31,428 nucleotides of DNA from a virus, in the UHGV virus genome UHGV-0241329. One strand, written 5' to 3'. The translations under genes were made by a program, and so were the position numbers. The notes under the pieces are model-generated. The model saw nothing but the letters and a program-made list of their open reading frames with translations, did not search any database and was not told where the DNA came from. Positions 8,815 through 21,141 of the stretch are shown here, piece after piece. Numbering within the stretch: position 1 is the stretch's first letter; each line of letters opens with the position of its first letter.

Positions 8815-8835
8815 GCCGCCTGTGCGGCTTTTTTT
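8815..8835 (+). terminator. Stem-loop with T-run between D and E
   Basis: GCCGC-CTGT-GCGGC followed by TTTTTTT. Confidence 0.4.
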
Positions 8836-8848
8836 ACGGGATTTTTTT

Positions 8849-9124
8849 ATGTCGATGTACACAACCGCCCAGCTGCTGGCGGCAAATGAGCAGAAATTTA
8901 AGTTTGATCCGCTGTTTCTGCGTCTCTTTTTCCGTGAGAGCTATCCCTTCACCACGGAGAAAGTCTATCTCTCACAAATTCCTGGACTGGTAAACATGGC
9001 GCTGTACGTTTCGCCAATTGTTTCCGGTGAGGTTATCCGTTCCCGTGGCGGCTCCACCTCTGAATTTACGCCGGGTTATGTCAAGCCGAAGCACTTAGCA
9101 TGGCTTTCTGAGGCTTTCGTGTAG
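8849..9124 (+). pseudogene. E: Major capsid protein E, 5' fragment (about 82 codons) truncated by the insertion and fused to 9 foreign codons (LAWLSEAFV)
   Basis: MSMYTTAQLLAANEQKFKFDPLFLRLFFRESYPFTTEKVYLSQIPGLVNMALYVSPIVSGEVIRSRGGSTSEFTPGYVKPKH matches recalled lambda gpE N-terminus, then diverges at 9094. Confidence 0.9.
9084..9093. repeat. attL core, AGCCGAAGCA (left copy of 10-bp direct repeat)
   Basis: Identical 10-mer at 9084..9093 and 20351..20360, exactly where lambda E homology stops and resumes. Confidence 0.8.
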
Positions 9125-11964: not shown

Positions 11965-12321
11965 TCAATATTTAGGTGGTTCAACAAGAGCGTTTATCAT
12001 TGCTCTCAAATTATCGCGAACACTTATCCAAGTCTGTTCTGCTCGTTCTAACTCATTAGTGTACAGCTTTAATGTTTTATCTATGCCATATGTGGCTATT
12101 AAATTTATAGCTTCTTGTAACTTTTCGGGATTATTCCTTCTTGGGGGAGTGAATATACCGCGGATTTTTCCGGTAATTAAAGCTTTACGGTGTCTACATA
12201 GAATACCTTTACTTCCTGCTGGACAATTACAAGTCATGATTAGCGAGCCAGAATCGTTTGATACAGTGACTATGTATACATCCAAACTACTGCTACTTGT
12301 TGCGAAGAATTCGTATTTCAT
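11965..12321 (-). CDS. Small SWIM-type zinc-finger protein
   Basis: 118-aa ORF with CNC-x9-CRH (CxCx(n)CxH) motif; co-oriented 28 bp downstream of RHH gene. Confidence 0.55.
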   Translation of the reverse strand: MKYEFFATSSSSLDVYIVTVSNDSGSLIMTCNCPAGSKGILCRHRKALITGKIRGIFTPPRRNNPEKLQEAINLIATYGIDKTLKLYTNELERAEQTWISVRDNLRAMINALVEPPKY

Positions 12322-12348
12322 GTGTTAGCTCCTTGACTTCAATTATTC

Positions 12349-12543
12349 TTATCCTTTTGGTTCAATACCGCGCCGTAGCAGCTCTTTGCGCCCTAACTCT
12401 TTAAGCCAGTTGGCAAGGCTTACCCCATCGTTACTGGCTTCGTTATCAAACTGCTCCTTCAATTCAGGAACTATGCGCATATGGAACGGTGGGGCCTTTC
12501 CTGTGCCTTTTTGTTTTTTATCGCGCTTAATAACCGTTGACAT
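12349..12543 (-). CDS. Ribbon-helix-helix (Arc/CopG-like) DNA-binding protein, candidate element repressor
   Basis: 64-aa ORF; FHMRIVPELKEQF beta-strand followed by helices; start codon overlaps a palindromic operator. Confidence 0.5.
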   Translation of the reverse strand: MSTVIKRDKKQKGTGKAPPFHMRIVPELKEQFDNEASNDGVSLANWLKELGRKELLRRGIEPKG

Positions 12544-12600
12544 GTGTACACCTATAGCGTTATGTTTTTATTCGATAGGTGTACACCTTAACATGTGTGC
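12541..12600. promoter_or_regulatory. Divergent control region with palindromic operators
   Basis: GTGTACACCTAT (12544..12555) and its inverted copy ATAGGTGTACAC (12575..12586), each containing palindrome GTGTACAC; ACATGTGT repeated; TTGACA at 12537..12542. Confidence 0.5.
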
Positions 12601-12878
12601 ATTTAAAAACGCAACGCCCCGCAGTGCGGGAACACATGCAGGGCGTCTAACCACCAACGATAGCAACAGTATCGAGGTAGCTATGAGAAATCATACCACA
12701 CACCCGCAAGGGCGGGACTCGCACAACCTGAATAAATTCACTTGGCGCTTTATCGCCCTGAGTGCGGCTAAACCGCGCATGCTTACCATCGTGGTCACCA
12801 GCGAGCAGGAAGACCGCCAGCAATCCCCAACTGGCTGCGTGATGATATTCGCCGCCCGTATTCGTCAGGAGGTGTGCC

Positions 12879-13103
12879 ATGAATGATCTTTATTTTAAAG
12901 TGCTGACACATGCTGAAAACGCGCTCGTTTGTGGCAAAAATATGCGAGAAATCTTATCAACCTGGCTTGATGGGACAACAAATGCGGAACACGATGAACG
13001 GGATGCTAATTTAGCTGGAGCGTTAATTACGTTACTTGATCCTGTCATCAAAGAGCTGGATGAAGCTATAAAAATACACGACCAGAGCTATACCGGAGAA
13101 TAA
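12879..13103 (+). CDS. Hypothetical small protein
   Basis: 74-aa ORF, first gene of the rightward operon leading to primase. Confidence 0.45.
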   Translation: MNDLYFKVLTHAENALVCGKNMREILSTWLDGTTNAEHDERDANLAGALITLLDPVIKELDEAIKIHDQSYTGE

Positions 13104-13106
13104 AAA

Positions 13107-13394
13107 ATGAAAAATAAATTTTCTGGCTTTATTGCCAGCGGTCAAACTCATTCAAAAATCAGCCTTGGGGATATTTTCAAAGACAGCTATGGCTATCGGG
13201 TAAAGATTATTTCGGTTGATGATCGTCGTGTCTCTTATTTGCGTGATGGTTATGATTTTGAATGTGTTATGCCGCGTCAGCAGTTCGAAAGAGATTTCAT
13301 TCTGGTAAAAAATTGCAAGACAGATAATCAGAGGCGTGCCGCAGGCTATATCCGTAAAATTCGGGCAATGTTAGTTGCCGGAGGTAACAAATGA
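13107..13394 (+). CDS. Hypothetical small protein
   Basis: 95-aa ORF; 3' end overlaps primase start (ATGA). Confidence 0.45.
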   Translation: MKNKFSGFIASGQTHSKISLGDIFKDSYGYRVKIISVDDRRVSYLRDGYDFECVMPRQQFERDFILVKNCKTDNQRRAAGYIRKIRAMLVAGGNK

Positions 13395-15211
13395 AACGTG
13401 CTCCGAACTTAAAATACCAACCGCGCGACAAAATGACGGAAGTCATCATTTTTGCTGGCAGTGATGCCTGGAGCCATGCAAAAGAATGGAATGAATGGGC
13501 AGGTAAGCATATTGCAGCAGATGATACACCACCAGTCATTCTGGGTACGGAACAACTGGAAAACCTGGATGATATGCAAATTATCGATGAAGGCCGTCAT
13601 TATGTGCGTGTTTATCGTGCCGGAAAGATTGCAGAGAAAAGTCTGACGAAGGTTGCGACATTACTTGCTATTGCAGGCGTAAAGGAAGCACGTTGTTACC
13701 GTAGCTTTGTTGATCGAGAGCCTGAAGACTGGACTCCGCGCCTTGTCGGCCTAAAAGCTGAAGCGGAGCATGGGGAAAGTCTGGTGATTGAACTGCCAGT
13801 GAAGAAGGCAGAGCGCAAAAATGACGAGCGTGCTTCATCTTTGGCGTTGAATCAGATGGGGGCCAGCCAGCGCGGTGAAGTTCTCCTTGCACATTACGGC
13901 GGTGAACTGGCAATCAATGCCGACTCTGACACCGTTCATCATTACAACGGCGTTGTATGGGAGCCGGTTCAGGATAAAGAGTTACAGCGTTCTATGGCGC
14001 AGATTTTCATTGATGCGGAGATCAGCTATTCGCAGAACGCTATTAAATCGGCGGTAGATACCATGAAGTTAAGTTTGCCTGTAATGGGGAATACAGCCCG
14101 TAACCTGATTGGATTCAGTAACGGGGTATTTGATACCAGAACTGGTAATTTTCGGGAGCATAACAAAAACGACTGGTTGTTAATTGCCAGTGAATTACCT
14201 TTCAGCCCACCAGCAGAGGGGGAAACGCTGGCAACACATGCGCCGAATTTCTGGAAGTGGTTGCGCCGTTCGGTGGCTGAGAATGACCGCAAGGCAGATC
14301 GCGTACTGGCGGCATTATTCATGGTGCTGGCGAACCGGTACGACTGGCAGTTATTCATTGAGGTAACAGGGCCGGGGGGAAGTGGTAAAAGTGTGATGGC
14401 GGAGATTTGCACCATGCTGGCGGGTAAGGCTAATACAGTATCAGCAAGCATGAAGGCGCTGGAAGATGCAAGGGAACGTGCGTTAGTGGTTGGCTTTTCG
14501 CTGATTATCATGCCGGATATGACCCGCTACGCTGGTGATGGGGCAGGGATTAAGGCCATTACAGGCGGTGACAAGGTGGCAATTGACCCGAAACACAAAG
14601 CCCCCTATTCAACGCGTATTCCGGCAGTAGTGCTGGCGGTTAACAATAACGCCATGTCATTCAGTGACCGCAGCGGGGGGATCTCACGTCGTCGGGTGAT
14701 ATTCAATTTTTCGGAAGTTGTACCGGAGAACGAACGCGATTCGATGCTGGCGGAAAAAATAGAAGGTGAGCTGGCGGTAGTGATTCGTCATCTGCTTACA
14801 AGGTTTGCTGATCAGGACGAAGCCAGACGCCTGTTATATGAGCAGCAGAAATCTGAAGAAGCACTGGCGATAAAGCGAGAGGGGGATTCGCTGGTGGACT
14901 TCTGCGGTTATCTCATGGCATCGGTAATGTGTGATGGCCTGTTAGTGGGTAATGCTGAAATTGTGCCATTCAGCCCACGCAGGTATCTCTATCATGCCTA
15001 TCTGGCTTATATGAGGGCACATGGGTTTGGTAAACCTGTAACACTGACGCGCTTCGGTAAAGATATGCCGGGGGCAATGGCGGAATATGGCAGGGAGTAT
15101 ATGAAACGGAAAACGAAGCACGGTTTGCGTTCAAACGTGACACTGACGGAGGAATCAGAAGACTGGATGCCATCATGTGTATCGGTCACTAATGACGATA
15201 GCAAAAATTAA
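13391..15211 (+). CDS. Primase-helicase replication protein (P4 alpha / PICI Pri-Rep-like)
   Basis: 606-aa ORF; Walker A EVTGPGGSGKS in C-terminal half; followed directly by iteron origin. Confidence 0.75.
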   Translation: MKRAPNLKYQPRDKMTEVIIFAGSDAWSHAKEWNEWAGKHIAADDTPPVILGTEQLENLDDMQIIDEGRHYVRVYRAGKIAEKSLTKVATLLAIAGVKEARCYRSFVDREPEDWTPRLVGLKAEAEHGESLVIELPVKKAERKNDERASSLALNQMGASQRGEVLLAHYGGELAINADSDTVHHYNGVVWEPVQDKELQRSMAQIFIDAEISYSQNAIKSAVDTMKLSLPVMGNTARNLIGFSNGVFDTRTGNFREHNKNDWLLIASELPFSPPAEGETLATHAPNFWKWLRRSVAENDRKADRVLAALFMVLANRYDWQLFIEVTGPGGSGKSVMAEICTMLAGKANTVSASMKALEDARERALVVGFSLIIMPDMTRYAGDGAGIKAITGGDKVAIDPKHKAPYSTRIPAVVLAVNNNAMSFSDRSGGISRRRVIFNFSEVVPENERDSMLAEKIEGELAVVIRHLLTRFADQDEARRLLYEQQKSEEALAIKREGDSLVDFCGYLMASVMCDGLLVGNAEIVPFSPRRYLYHAYLAYMRAHGFGKPVTLTRFGKDMPGAMAEYGREYMKRKTKHGLRSNVTLTEESEDWMPSCVSVTNDDSKN

Positions 15212-16190: not shown

Positions 16191-16402
16191 ATATTGCCAA
16201 TAAAAAAGGCCGGAAAAAAAATAAATTTTCCGGCATGCTACATAAATCCCGACCAAAGGGAGTGAAGATATTAACACTAATTATCCGCGCTGAAGTTGTT
16301 ATCCCAAAACTTTATACAACATTGCACTCGGTTGCATGTATTCGCATGATAAATATCGGTGATAGCATATATCCACAATTATTTTTAATGAATGCAAAGA
16401 GG

Positions 16403-17449
16403 ATGCGTATGGTTGATTTATATTCGCCTACCCAGCTTGTACAGGTGGTTAATGCTGTAGATGTACAAAAACAACTAAATGCGTTGTTTACCAGTTTGTT
16501 TTTTACTCGCTCGGTAATGTTTGAATCGCGCGATATTATTCTTGATACAATCGACGATCCAAATATCCCAATTGCAGCGTTTTGTTCTCCTATGGTGGGT
16601 AGTAAAGTTTCACGTGACGAAGGGTACGAATCAAAAACAATTCGTCCAGGCTATATGAAGCCGAAAAGCAGCATTGATCCAAATAAGTTAGCTGTGCGCC
16701 CTGCTGGTGTATCACCTGAGCAATACAATGCTTTTGGAGCGCGTAATATTAAAGTTAAACAGGCGATTGTAAATCAGGCTAAAGCTATTCGTGCACGTAT
16801 TGAATGGCTTGCCGTTCAGGCAATCACAACGGGGAAAAATATCATTGAGGGCGATGGTATTGAACGTTATGAGCTGGACTGGAATATTAAACCACAAAAT
16901 ATCATCACTCAGTCTGGCGGTGCTGAGTGGTCAGGTAAGGATAAAGAAACTTTTGATCCAAATGATGATATTGAGAGCTACGCAGAATTTAGTGAGGGCG
17001 TCACTAATATCATCATTATGGGCGGTAATGTATGGAAGAAATACCGTTCATTCAGAGCGATAAAAGAGGCTCTGGATACCCGTCGTGGTTCTAATTCCGA
17101 ACTGGAAACGGCCCTTAAAGACCTTGGTGATTCGGTGAGTTTTAAAGGGTATATGGGCGATGTTGCGATTGTTGTATACAGCGGGCGTTATACCGATGAG
17201 GACGGAACTGAAAAACATTTCCTTGATCCTGATTTGATGGTGCTTGGCAATACAGCTCTTCAGGGGATTGTCGCCTATGGCGGTATTCAGGATCCGGAGC
17301 TAATCCGAATGGGGCTGACTAAAGCCGAACTTGCACCGAAAAACTATATTGTGCCTGGTGATCCGGCTATTGAATATGTGCAGACACATTCAGCACCACA
17401 GCCAATACCGGCCCGCATCAATCGTTTTGTTACCGTTCGCATTGGCTAA
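16403..17449 (+). CDS. Major capsid protein, divergent homolog of lambda gpE, encoded by the element
   Basis: Aligns along its length with lambda gpE, e.g. ITQSGGAEWSGKDKETFDPNDDIESYA vs ITQSGGTEWSKRDKSTYDPTDDIEAYA, and LDTRRGSNSELETA identical; start uncertain among ATG 16388/16403/16409. Confidence 0.8.
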   Translation: MRMVDLYSPTQLVQVVNAVDVQKQLNALFTSLFFTRSVMFESRDIILDTIDDPNIPIAAFCSPMVGSKVSRDEGYESKTIRPGYMKPKSSIDPNKLAVRPAGVSPEQYNAFGARNIKVKQAIVNQAKAIRARIEWLAVQAITTGKNIIEGDGIERYELDWNIKPQNIITQSGGAEWSGKDKETFDPNDDIESYAEFSEGVTNIIIMGGNVWKKYRSFRAIKEALDTRRGSNSELETALKDLGDSVSFKGYMGDVAIVVYSGRYTDEDGTEKHFLDPDLMVLGNTALQGIVAYGGIQDPELIRMGLTKAELAPKNYIVPGDPAIEYVQTHSAPQPIPARINRFVTVRIG

Positions 17450-17458
17450 GGGGGAGCA

Positions 17459-17800
17459 ATGGCTACTCATTACACTGAACTCATGGCTGGCACTGAAGCA
17501 CTGGTGACTACGCTGGGGATATTTTCAGCTAATAAAGGGGTAATTCCTGCATTTACGCCACTGATGCAGGAAGATGCAACAGGTGCACTGGTGGTATGGG
17601 ATGGTTCGAGCGTAGGTAAAGCGGTTTATGTTTCCGCTGTACAAATCGACACCGCGAAAAAAACACAGGCTCAGGTCTATAAGACAGGTGTCTTAAATGT
17701 TGATGCTCTGAACTGGCCTGAGTCTGTAAAAGAACTGTCAGTAAAGATTGCAGCGTTTGTTGGCTCAGGTATTTCTGTTCAGCCGCTGGCTCGTGTGTAA
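17459..17800 (+). CDS. Head decoration protein, divergent homolog of lambda gpD
   Basis: 113 aa; LVVWDGSSVGKAVYVSAVQ...KTGVLNVDALNWPE...AAFVGSGISV parallels lambda gp[20 protein letters not shown]...[14 protein letters not shown]...[11 protein letters not shown]. Confidence 0.65.
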   Translation: MATHYTELMAGTEALVTTLGIFSANKGVIPAFTPLMQEDATGALVVWDGSSVGKAVYVSAVQIDTAKKTQAQVYKTGVLNVDALNWPESVKELSVKIAAFVGSGISVQPLARV

Positions 17801-18679: not shown

Positions 18680-19996
18680 TTATCTTGAAGAAATTTTAGG
18701 CAGGCTTTTTAAAAATAAATCTTTATTTCTACTTGCATCAGTTAAAAGTGTTAGGAATATTTTATCTGTAGGAGTGCATGTGCTCTTGTTTAACAGTAAT
18801 TCACCAAGTTTCTGTAATCGAGAGAATTGCCCATCCTCTTGGATTCTGTGACGAAGTGTACTATCATTTTTAATAACATCAACAAATGCAGAAACCATGT
18901 TAATATCAAAGTGTTCAAACATTTCCAATATTAAAGGTGCAGCCCCATTTGAATAAAAATTCTTCCTTCCATACTGATAGCTGAAACCACGATGGCCAAC
19001 ATAAGTTTTTGTAATGGCTGAAACAAATTCAACAATATTATCTTCAGGGACGAAACTCGAGAATGGTAATAATTGGGTTACGATTTTTTCCTCTTCTGAC
19101 CAATTATCTAAAGACTCGGTGAGTTTATTAATGAGAGGCTCAATAATAACTTTTCGGGATGCAGGGCTAATATACATCAGTCCATCTACCAATAGTATGA
19201 ATTGTTGTGCCTTCTCTATCTTATTGTTGTTTCCTGAAACTAAATACTTGTCAAATTGTTGGCCGACTTTACGTCGGTCGTCTTTTGAAAGTAATGTCCA
19301 TAAAATAGGTGCGCAAAATTCAATGTTGTTTCTGAGTTCACTTGATATATTGGATGAGCAGTATGTGCCAAAAAAACGAGAGGATAATTCACTGATATAA
19401 ATTGCAGGTAGATCTGAAAAGGCTTGCTTAACTGCCAGGCTATTTTTATTAAATGTTGCCGAATCCATTTCTGAAAGATATGTAGATATATCTATGATGG
19501 CTGGTGGAAACTCTTTAGAAAGAACGTATTTATTACAATCATTAATCAGGTTCACTACTTTGATTAAATCAGGGTCGCTACTTTGTGGATGTCCACCAAA
19601 TAGATTCCTGGTTTCTCTAGCTTGTTGTAATAGTTTCTGACCTTCTCGATCGATAACTCCTATTTTAAATGCTCCATCTATTAAATCAAAGTCGCTCACA
19701 TAATCCTGAAAATCTTCATACGTTTTAATTTCTTTTTTTTGTTTACACTCTTTGTTGAATAGATCTAGGCTACGATGAATTATCTTTTGACGTAAATCAT
19801 CAACTACAGCATTCCAGTAAGCAGTGATGGCACTTCTATAACCTTTTACAGGAAGAACTCTTATTGCTTCTGAAATATATGGGCAGTCAACTACATCATG
19901 CCTCACAGTTGAGAGCGCAGTTTGTAACAATGTAACTTCTGTAGAGTCTAGTGGAGTTGGCTGCACTAAATGAGAACTTATCTCTGTACCCTTCAT
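18680..19996 (-). CDS. Hypothetical protein, AT-rich cargo gene at attR end
   Basis: 438-aa ORF on reverse strand, visibly AT-rich; no motif recognised; hairpin AGGCGTGAT-N8-ATCACGCCT at 18649..18674 just 3' of it. Confidence 0.55.
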   Translation of the reverse strand: MKGTEISSHLVQPTPLDSTEVTLLQTALSTVRHDVVDCPYISEAIRVLPVKGYRSAITAYWNAVVDDLRQKIIHRSLDLFNKECKQKKEIKTYEDFQDYVSDFDLIDGAFKIGVIDREGQKLLQQARETRNLFGGHPQSSDPDLIKVVNLINDCNKYVLSKEFPPAIIDISTYLSEMDSATFNKNSLAVKQAFSDLPAIYISELSSRFFGTYCSSNISSELRNNIEFCAPILWTLLSKDDRRKVGQQFDKYLVSGNNNKIEKAQQFILLVDGLMYISPASRKVIIEPLINKLTESLDNWSEEEKIVTQLLPFSSFVPEDNIVEFVSAITKTYVGHRGFSYQYGRKNFYSNGAAPLILEMFEHFDINMVSAFVDVIKNDSTLRHRIQEDGQFSRLQKLGELLLNKSTCTPTDKIFLTLLTDASRNKDLFLKSLPKISSR

Positions 19997-20360: not shown

Positions 20361-21141
20361 TGAGGTGAATCCGCAGATGACCCTGCGTCGCCTGCCGGAT
20401 GAAGATCCGCAGAATCTGGCGGACCCGGCTTACCGCCGCCGTCGCATCATCCTGCAGAACATGCGTGACGAAGAGCTGGCCATTGCTCAGGTCGAAGAGA
20501 TGCAGGCAGTTTCTGCCGTGCTCAAGGGCAAATACACCATGACCGGTGAAGCCTTCGATCCGGTTGAGGTGGATATGGGCCGCAGTGCGGCGAACAACAT
20601 CACGCAGTCCGGCGGCACGGAGTGGAGCAAGCGTGACAAGTCCACGTATGACCCGACCGACGATATCGAAGCCTACGCGCTGAACGCCAGCGGCGTGGTG
20701 AATATCATCGTGTTTGATCCGAAAGGCTGGGCGCTGTTCCGTTCCTTCAAAGCCGTCAAGGAGAAGCTGGATACCCGTCGCGGCTCTAATTCCGAGCTGG
20801 AGACAGCGGTAAAAGACCTGGGCGAAGCGGTGTCCTATAAGGGGATGTATGGCGATACGGCGATCGTCGTGTATTCCGGACAGTACGTGGAAAACGACGT
20901 CAAAAAGAACTTCCTGCCGGACAACACGATGGTGCTGGGGAACACTCAGGCACGCGGTCTGCGCACCTATGGCTGCATTCAGGATGCGGACGCACAGCGC
21001 GAAGGTATTAACGCCTCTGCCCGCTACCCGAAAAACTGGGTGACCACCGGCGATCCGGCGCGTGAGTTCACCATGATTCAGTCAGCACCGCTGATGCTGC
21101 TGGCTGATCCTGATGCGTTCGTGTCCGTACAACTGGCGTAA
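20353..21141 (+). pseudogene. E: Major capsid protein E, 3' fragment (from codon about 80) lacking its native start
   Basis: PKHEVNPQMTLRRLPDEDPQNLADPAYRRRR...VSVQLA matches recalled lambda gpE C-terminal 260 aa; in-frame TAG at 20350..20352 immediately upstream. Confidence 0.9.

Follow-up and report, generated by a model that had tools for sequence, protein, structure and literature searches.

Two small open reading frames (ORFs) precede the primase-helicase gene of an E. coli phage satellite carried on the virus genome UHGV-0241329, a stretch of 31,428 nucleotides that we call the window. The satellite is a phage-inducible chromosomal island (PICI) of the published EcCICFT073 type. The second of these two ORFs, ORF95, belongs to the RgdR/DUF4222 protein family, within which it is divergent, and the first, ORF74, belongs to a narrow, PICI-restricted family of proteins of about 75 amino acids (aa). 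With a probability of roughly 0.55, we favor the reading that ORF95 has an accessory role linked to the replication initiator, that ORF74 serves as a partner, and that the chain of genes in which both reside is controlled at its first ribosome-binding site.

ORF95 is a relative of the regulator RgdR

ORF95 extends on the plus strand from an ATG at 13107 to a TGA at 13394 (95 aa), with the sequence GGAG located 8 nt before the start codon. A prior interpretation made from the letters of the window (the sequence-only reading) held that nothing in the sequence identifies either small ORF. This claim does not survive for ORF95, whose identity to RgdR and c1493 lies between 44 and 50%. Its residues 17-68 match model positions 2-53 of the 53 positions in Pfam DUF4222 (PF13973) with 78.2 bits (cutoff 27, E = 3.4e-22), and the protein is assigned to PHROG 285 (function unknown). 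ECs1581 (RgdR) of E. coli O157:H7 Sakai and c1493 of strain CFT073 share 47% and 50% of their residues with ORF95 in a MAFFT alignment that has 41 invariant columns, and the corresponding pairwise values are 44% and 47%. A word-indexed protein search returned eight matches for ORF95 and four for ORF74.

RgdR, the product of ECs1581 in O-island 51 (CP-933C), is a protein of 99 aa with an isoelectric point (pI) of 10 (PMC3378721) that carries a DUF4222 domain (PMC10877973). It activates the LEE1 promoter in the enterocyte effacement locus (LEE) without Ler, represses motility, binds DNA non-specifically, and has been linked to type III secretion system (T3SS) activation and to the colonization of sheep (PMC3378721). 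All E. coli PICIs analyzed by Fillol-Salom et al. encode RgdR (PMC6092414). The "LEE repressor" of EcCIMP1 was also considered as a possible DUF4222 relative and was rejected because it is a PerC homologue.

Structure prediction, which had been proposed as a check on the two ORFs, yielded a barrel plus a helix for ORF95 and a helical hairpin for ORF74. In the AlphaFold model of ORF95 (pLDDT 77), the N-terminus is disordered, residues 23-68 form a barrel of five strands, and residues 70-94 form a long C-terminal helix. As modeled, the barrel of this basic protein (pI 9.9) is Tudor/SH3-like and the C-terminal helix is basic. A search of the PDB by sequence with the DUF4222 family profile gave no match, and a structure search of BFVD with ORF95 recovered only uncharacterized phage barrels and DUF1653. 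Within the predicted disordered segment, residues 7-13 (window positions 13125-13145) form the motif SGFIASG. The pattern SG(L/F)(T/I)ASG, which may serve as a short linear motif for binding, is kept in PICI-type DUF4222 proteins, even very divergent ones, and is missing from those of lambdoid phages.

ORF74 represents a narrow family of acidic proteins

ORF74 (ATG 12879 to TAA 13103, plus strand, 74 aa) has AGGAGG located 6 nt before its start codon. Residues 1-73 match positions 1-73 of the 74-position profile of PHROG 2196 (function unknown; E = 3.9e-35), and neither Pfam nor NCBIfam gave a match. When 17 members of the family were compared with Pfam at E <= 1, no Pfam family was matched by two or more of them. 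HMMER, run exhaustively against 1.84 billion representatives, produced only 23 matches at E <= 0.001, about 17 of which are genuine small proteins (44-84 aa). A PDB search by sequence with the family profile gave only noise (E > 0.06). The AlphaFold2 model (pLDDT 85.7) is a two-helix hairpin with helices at residues 2-32 and 40-71.

The product of the gene that directly precedes c1493 in CFT073 is 43% identical to ORF74, and the value for ECs1580 is 24%; ECs1580 and this CFT073 protein match the hidden Markov model (HMM) of the ORF74 family with E = 4.8e-34 and 2.4e-10, respectively. ORF74 is acidic (pI 4.6), and the family as a whole (pI 4.2-5.5) contrasts in charge with the PICI DUF4222 proteins (pI 8.8-10.4). 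We found no functional work on the ORF74 family in the literature on c1492, c1493, ECs1580, and z1841.

Both ORFs are conserved genes within a four-gene chain

Chance ORFs of similar length are common in this DNA, given that the window contains 110 ORFs of at least 70 aa. Length is therefore uninformative, and the case that ORF74 and ORF95 are real genes rests on homology, selection, and synteny. For selection, we made comparisons with copies that have diverged to synonymous saturation. The values are pN 0.27 versus pS 0.71 for ORF74 (dN/dS 0.12-0.33) and pN 0.24 versus pS 0.59 for ORF95 (dN/dS 0.22-0.29). By this sequence comparison, both are under purifying selection and are genuine conserved genes. 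Gene order is conserved in more than 15 related elements and is the same in CFT073 and Sakai, and a scan of genome contigs with the DUF4222 profile found a single locus. The two plus-strand ORFs named in the sequence-only reading do exist where it had placed them, and its own test of them, conservation in related elements, comes out in their favor.

The chain begins with an Icd-like ORF on the plus strand (ATG 12683 to TGA 12886, 67 aa) whose Shine-Dalgarno (SD) sequence GAGG is at 12674-12677. From 12683 onward, this ORF covers the full NF033153 model (2.1e-17). Its end overlaps the start of ORF74 by 8 nt (ATGAATGA), a gap of 3 nt separates ORF74 from ORF95, and the ATG of the primase-helicase gene at 13391 shares the letters ATGA with the stop codon of ORF95. 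The primase-helicase gene (13391..15211, plus strand, with GGAGG 6 nt upstream) encodes a 606-aa protein of the P4 alpha type with D5_N, DUF5906, and Pox_D5 matches. It is 44% identical to EcCICFT073 Pri-Rep over its full length, and its start is confirmed by an N-terminus that aligns with Pri-Rep from residue 1.

Judging from the geometry of these junctions, the Icd-like ORF, ORF74, ORF95, and the primase-helicase gene would form a coupled chain of four genes. Together, these genes constitute the replication operon of a PICI of the EcCICFT073 type. Coupling of the two small ORFs to the primase-helicase through the ATGA at 13391 had been proposed before, and the overlap and the SD sites are indeed present. 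The earlier view of the chain was correct in including these two ORFs but missed the Icd-like link that overlaps ORF74. Between one and four small ORFs separate the Icd-like gene from the DUF4222 gene across related elements.

Other PICIs have homologous Icd-like genes of 66-68 aa annotated at the equivalent position. E. coli strain A37 carries an element otherwise identical to that of the window, and we used its annotation for gene order; its PGAP call for the Icd-like ORF, at 35 aa, is too short. A tblastn search of phages with the Icd-like protein gave a capsid-forming PICI-like record as its sole match. The Icd-like frame is also open back to position 12386, and other genomes have longer "Icd-like" proteins annotated across the RNA leader described below.

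The DUF4222 gene precedes unrelated replication initiators

To follow gene order, the loci of divergent ORF74 homologues were looked up and all collected loci were scanned with HMMs of both families, whose diversity was drawn from the exhaustive HMMER search, contig look-ups, and E. coli BLAST. An ORF74-family gene lies directly 5' of a DUF4222 gene in 11 distinct loci, and a single ORF intervenes in L012/13. In PICIs, the gene immediately 3' of the DUF4222 gene is the replication gene, and in nearly all cases the two overlap by the 4 nt of an ATGA. This replication gene is of the P4-type primase-helicase class (D5_N/DUF5906/Pox_D5) in the window, in CFT073, and in L009. Elsewhere its place is taken by a Zn-ribbon primase/Toprim/D5_N protein (L011), a DUF927 protein (L012), or an AAA_25 RepA-like helicase (L015). 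DUF4222 genes also accompany different primases in other enterobacteria.

The same arrangement continues into phages that are not satellites. A tblastn search with ORF95 matched 50 phage records, and in SfIV, mEp390, KpF5, and Eeyore, a DUF4222 ORF of 59-73 aa ends 11 nt inside a lambda-O-like replication gene. These phage copies are barrel-only proteins of near-neutral charge that do not have the basic helix. Because the DUF4222 gene keeps its position across five unrelated types of initiator, its function is probably tied to the expression or the action of the initiator. In the literature that we searched, two points appear to be unreported: that the DUF4222-initiator junction stays constant whatever the type of initiator, lambdoid phages included, and that the ORF74 family is the PICI-specific neighbor of DUF4222.

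Residues 1-130 of the primase-helicase (13391-13780) are 39% identical to the AAA_25 RepA-like helicase in L015, a protein that is otherwise unrelated. This N-terminal domain of about 130 aa is also found in CFT073 Pri-Rep and is a swappable module placed directly 3' of the DUF4222 gene.

A hidden DUF4222 ORF lies within ymfM of e14

One lambdoid-type copy resides in the e14 element of E. coli K-12, where an unannotated ORF of 59 aa with a TTG start matches DUF4222 with 67.3 bits (L014:5002-5181, which is NC_000913.3 1204001-1204180). It lies out of frame within the 3' half of ymfM, a gene with the annotation of cell-division inhibitor (SfiC), and it overlaps the start of the O-like gene oweE by 11 nt. 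Other copies of the lambdoid type are found at L005:3438-3659 and L006:3480-3665 and in L023 and L024.

Among e14, mEp390, KpF5, and Eeyore, the DUF4222 frame has pN/pS values of 0.08-0.16, and its third positions account for 161 of the 227 differences. Over the same ORF, the frame of ymfM behaves as non-coding sequence would, with pN/pS values of 1.8-3.5. This pattern of substitution indicates that selection here acts on the DUF4222 frame and not on that of ymfM. An expression clone of ymfM served to demonstrate filamentation (bioRxiv 10.1101/2020.11.19.390815), and this clone would include most of the hidden ORF. The interpretation of ymfM over-expression phenotypes may thus be affected.

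A candidate operator and a predicted antisense RNA precede the chain

A promoter-like site of the sigma-70 type (TTGACA-18-TATGTT, plus strand, 12537-12566) matches the consensus. The two arms of a perfect inverted repeat of 12 bp (12544-12555 and 12575-12586) bracket it. From these consensus matches, the repeat is a candidate operator. It lies beside a divergent gene (12349..12543, minus strand) for a 64-aa Arc/HicB-like ribbon-helix-helix protein, which matches the Arc-like repressors of PHROG 228 (2.4e-5) and, weakly, Pfam HicB. The protein WP_001306492.1 is its counterpart at the equivalent place in L001 and L015. By its family and location, this protein is a candidate repressor of the rightward operon. 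It had been noted previously that the two small ORFs lie downstream of an operator region, and the promoter and inverted repeat bear this out.

Between the promoter and the ATG of the Icd-like ORF, folding and covariation point to a minus-strand RNA of about 80 nt (12605..12684). It has an extended -10 element (TGgTATGAT, 12698-12690) and two hairpins, the second of which is GC-rich and is followed by a U-run, as in a terminator-like site on that strand. The RNA is complementary to both the SD (GAGG, 12674-12677) and the ATG (12683) of the Icd-like ORF. Its minimum free energy is -38.5 kcal/mol (z = -6.0). Thirteen diverged copies give a consensus of 24 base pairs, six of them with compensatory change. 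Paired cells amount to 95.5% versus 31-53% when the partners are slid, and none of 500 shuffles reached the observed values. The helices contain 77 G.U cells when read on the minus strand and none when read on the plus strand, where they would be only 53% and 83.5% paired. This comparison carries the caveat that it was the minus strand that was folded to obtain the structure.

The RNA leader matches 1644 of 5426 E. coli genomes. No C4, CI, or isrK-type RNA was found by Rfam at the gathering score across the whole window, or at E <= 10 within 12200-13500, where the best match was SymR with 22 bits against a gathering score of 61. We read this region as specifying a conserved and structured cis-antisense RNA of about 80 nt, which is predicted to cover the first ribosome-binding site of the chain. 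It appears to be unreported in the literature that we searched.

Genomic setting of the satellite

The element is inserted in the capsid gene E of a lambdoid prophage, between two halves of this major capsid gene at about 8822-9124 and about 20365-21141; such capsid fragments also flank the element in L001. This places it in the helper-embedded class of PICIs described earlier, with the site E:Phage_cap_E (PMC10111431). Several E. coli chromosomes contain the 3-kb region around the two ORFs at 100% identity, and 1355 of 5426 complete E. coli genomes have sequence related to it.

As annotated in strain A37, the element begins with genes for an integrase, an AlpA-type helix-turn-helix protein, a 273-aa ORF, a SWIM protein (minus strand), and the 64-aa Arc/HicB-like protein (minus strand). 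It continues with the Icd-like ORF, ORF74, the DUF4222 protein, the primase, an 81-aa ORF, a protein that binds single-stranded DNA (SSB), the major capsid protein, and a head-decoration protein. This order agrees with the map of the prototype Gram-negative PICI EcCICFT073, and the element displays the full PICI layout of int plus alpA, a zone of co-oriented small ORFs, a primase, an SSB, and late genes (capsid and decoration). In the window, the capsid and decoration genes that belong to the satellite itself are at 16235-17449 and 17459-17800.

The SWIM zinc-finger protein (11965-12321, minus strand) belongs to PHROG 13130 and weakly matches the PADLOC candidate system PDC-S62 (E = 9.9e-5). 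At 18680-19996 (minus strand), the window has a 438-aa ORF that gave no PADLOC match. In A37, this place is taken by a small terminase and a DUF2971 protein.

Possible functions of ORF95 and ORF74

On the reading that we favor, ORF95 would be a small accessory factor that binds DNA, acts within the early/replication module, and is made at a fixed ratio to the initiator through termination-reinitiation. Perhaps it remodels or un-silences an AT-rich origin or early region, or perhaps it contacts RNA polymerase. Activation of LEE1 together with reduced motility is the outcome expected from a loss of H-NS function, which makes H-NS counter-silencing an attractive specific model. A CarD-like contact between ORF95 and RNA polymerase is a suggested alternative, derived from the predicted fold. 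What RgdR does to host LEE and motility genes would then be a spill-over of this accessory activity. ORF74 might be a protein-binding partner or modulator, most likely of the basic ORF95 or of the N-terminal domain of the initiator. The divergent repressor and its operator, together with the cis-antisense RNA, would determine expression of the chain at its first ribosome-binding site. By analogy with the copy-control circuits of plasmids and with c4-icd-ant of phage P1, blocking this site might silence ORF74, ORF95, and the primase altogether.

Several facts weigh against these proposals. The RGD tripeptide (residues 20-22), which gave RgdR its name and has been linked to its activity, is absent from ORF95, which carries LGD instead. 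Across 35 members representing the family, residue 20 varies among R, L, H, N, and P, and G21 and D22 are invariant. This natural variability suggests that RGD marks a functional subtype and not the family. The known phenotypes of the family all concern host genes, and the published EcCICFT073 mutants comprise only int, alpA, pri-rep, c1499, and c1500 (PMC6092414). A capsid-forming PICI-like element (L007) has an ORF74 homologue that abuts the primase gene without a DUF4222 gene, and L020 and L021 carry an unrelated 106-aa ORF in the place of ORF74. The adjacency of the two genes could reflect inherited linkage within a mobile module rather than joint function. A Foldseek search of the PDB with ORF74 found only generic helical hairpins (Rop variants and designed bundles, all with E > 0.5), from which we draw no functional inference. 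Lastly, the antisense transcript is a prediction from sequence.

The data on host phenotypes raise the possibility that the two ORFs are "moron" genes, with ORF95 reprogramming host transcription of virulence and motility functions for the lysogen and its adjacency to the primase being incidental. The experimental data for the family concern only LEE/T3SS, motility, and sheep colonization (PMC3378721), and RgdR has been classed as an accessory virulence gene in the PICI literature (PMC6092414). However, essentially all E. coli PICIs carry a DUF4222 gene, those of commensal and LEE-negative hosts included, and it also occurs with different primases in other enterobacteria and, in minimal form, before gene O of lambdoid phages. 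The DUF4222 gene always overlaps the initiator start. PICI cargo occupies variable zones and not the replication operon (PMC10111431). On balance, we consider this explanation unlikely. The consistently opposite charges and very frequent adjacency of the two proteins could instead be those of an antagonist pair, a two-gene module in which acidic ORF74 inhibits or chaperones basic, DNA-binding ORF95 in the manner of an antitoxin or a DNA mimic. Such a module seems distinctly improbable, because each gene can be found singly (L007, L020/L021, and all lambdoid phages) and there is no similarity to toxin-antitoxin families.

It is also conceivable that translation alone matters, with functionless peptides serving to deliver ribosomes to the primase start and to prevent Rho-dependent polarity. 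The overlapping or abutting stop and start codons along the whole chain in every related element, as well as the varying number of small ORFs within it, would fit such a relay. We give this idea little credence given that the amino acid sequences are under purifying selection (dN/dS 0.1-0.3), that both proteins have confident predicted folds, that conservation of the DUF4222 domain spans PICIs and lambdoid phages (with the pN/pS values given above), and that RgdR supplied in trans produces phenotypes (PMC3378721). The sequence-only reading had suggested helper interference or derepression, in which the proteins would act on late proteins of the helper phage or on the satellite repressor. These are indeed small, early-expressed genes of a satellite, and many known interference proteins are small unannotated ORFs. 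Nevertheless, neither ORF resembles any interference or defence family in Pfam, NCBIfam, PHROGs, or PADLOC, and Gram-negative PICIs are induced through the activator AlpA and not by derepression of an Stl-type repressor (PMC6092414). Moreover, the presence of DUF4222 at the equivalent position in non-satellite lambdoid phages argues against a function that pits satellite against helper. The known interference by E. coli PICIs maps elsewhere, to Rpp and the late zone (PMC6739421). We therefore regard the suggestion as very improbable.

We advance only tentatively, and with the odds against it, the broader proposal that DUF4222 proteins are general initiator-coupled accessory factors, common to enterobacterial PICIs and lambdoid phages, and not virulence cargo, with LEE and motility effects as by-products, ORF74 as the partner, and the antisense RNA as a throttle. 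If an initiator-linked role is correct, a protein known only as a "virulence regulator" of enterohemorrhagic E. coli would belong to the machinery by which satellites and lambdoid phages start replication, which would explain why prophage and PICI load alters LEE and motility expression. It would also provide a testable role for two of the many unnamed small ORFs that precede satellite primases, and the satellite primase would be silenced in the lysogen by a repressor and an antisense RNA acting on a coupled chain of ORFs.

Comparison with known systems

As it stands, the locus holds an unremarkable allele of a gene pair that EcCICFT073 and O-island 51 already carry. Like ORF95 (95 aa), RgdR and c1493 are basic DUF4222 proteins (99 aa) with an N-terminal K-rich/SG.xASG segment, and their genes lie directly 5' of a PICI primase gene with an ATGA overlap. 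Unlike RgdR, ORF95 has LGD and a different C-terminal helix sequence, which it has in common with the L015 copy. The host strains of the ORF95 allele are commensal or animal isolates. ECs1580/z1841 of Sakai/EDL933 and the CFT073 gene at L003:4707-4940 are of the same family and in the same position as ORF74, a comparison that extends to the family name only. Tudor-like domains that bind RNA polymerase (the C-terminal domain of UvrD/PcrA, the RID of CarD/Mfd, and the KOW domain of Spt5/NusG) are among the closest known counterparts of the ORF95 model, but the fold is generic and there is no similarity in sequence (6-19% identity).

The control region invites comparison with well-known circuits. 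In the CopA-tap-repA system of plasmid R1, the Inc RNA-repY-repZ systems of IncI/IncB plasmids, and the c4-icd-ant system of phage P1, a replication or antirepressor gene is translated only when coupled to one or more upstream small ORFs. By analogy, a small structured RNA in the PICI would target the ribosome-binding site of the first ORF and, as in P1, an ORF of the Icd family heads the chain. The C4 RNA of P1 and the CI RNA of P4 are processed from the sense transcript, whereas the RNA predicted here is cis-antisense. Finally, in contrast to the leader peptides of the plasmids, the PICI chain places three sizeable ORFs, each conserved at the protein level, ahead of its initiator.

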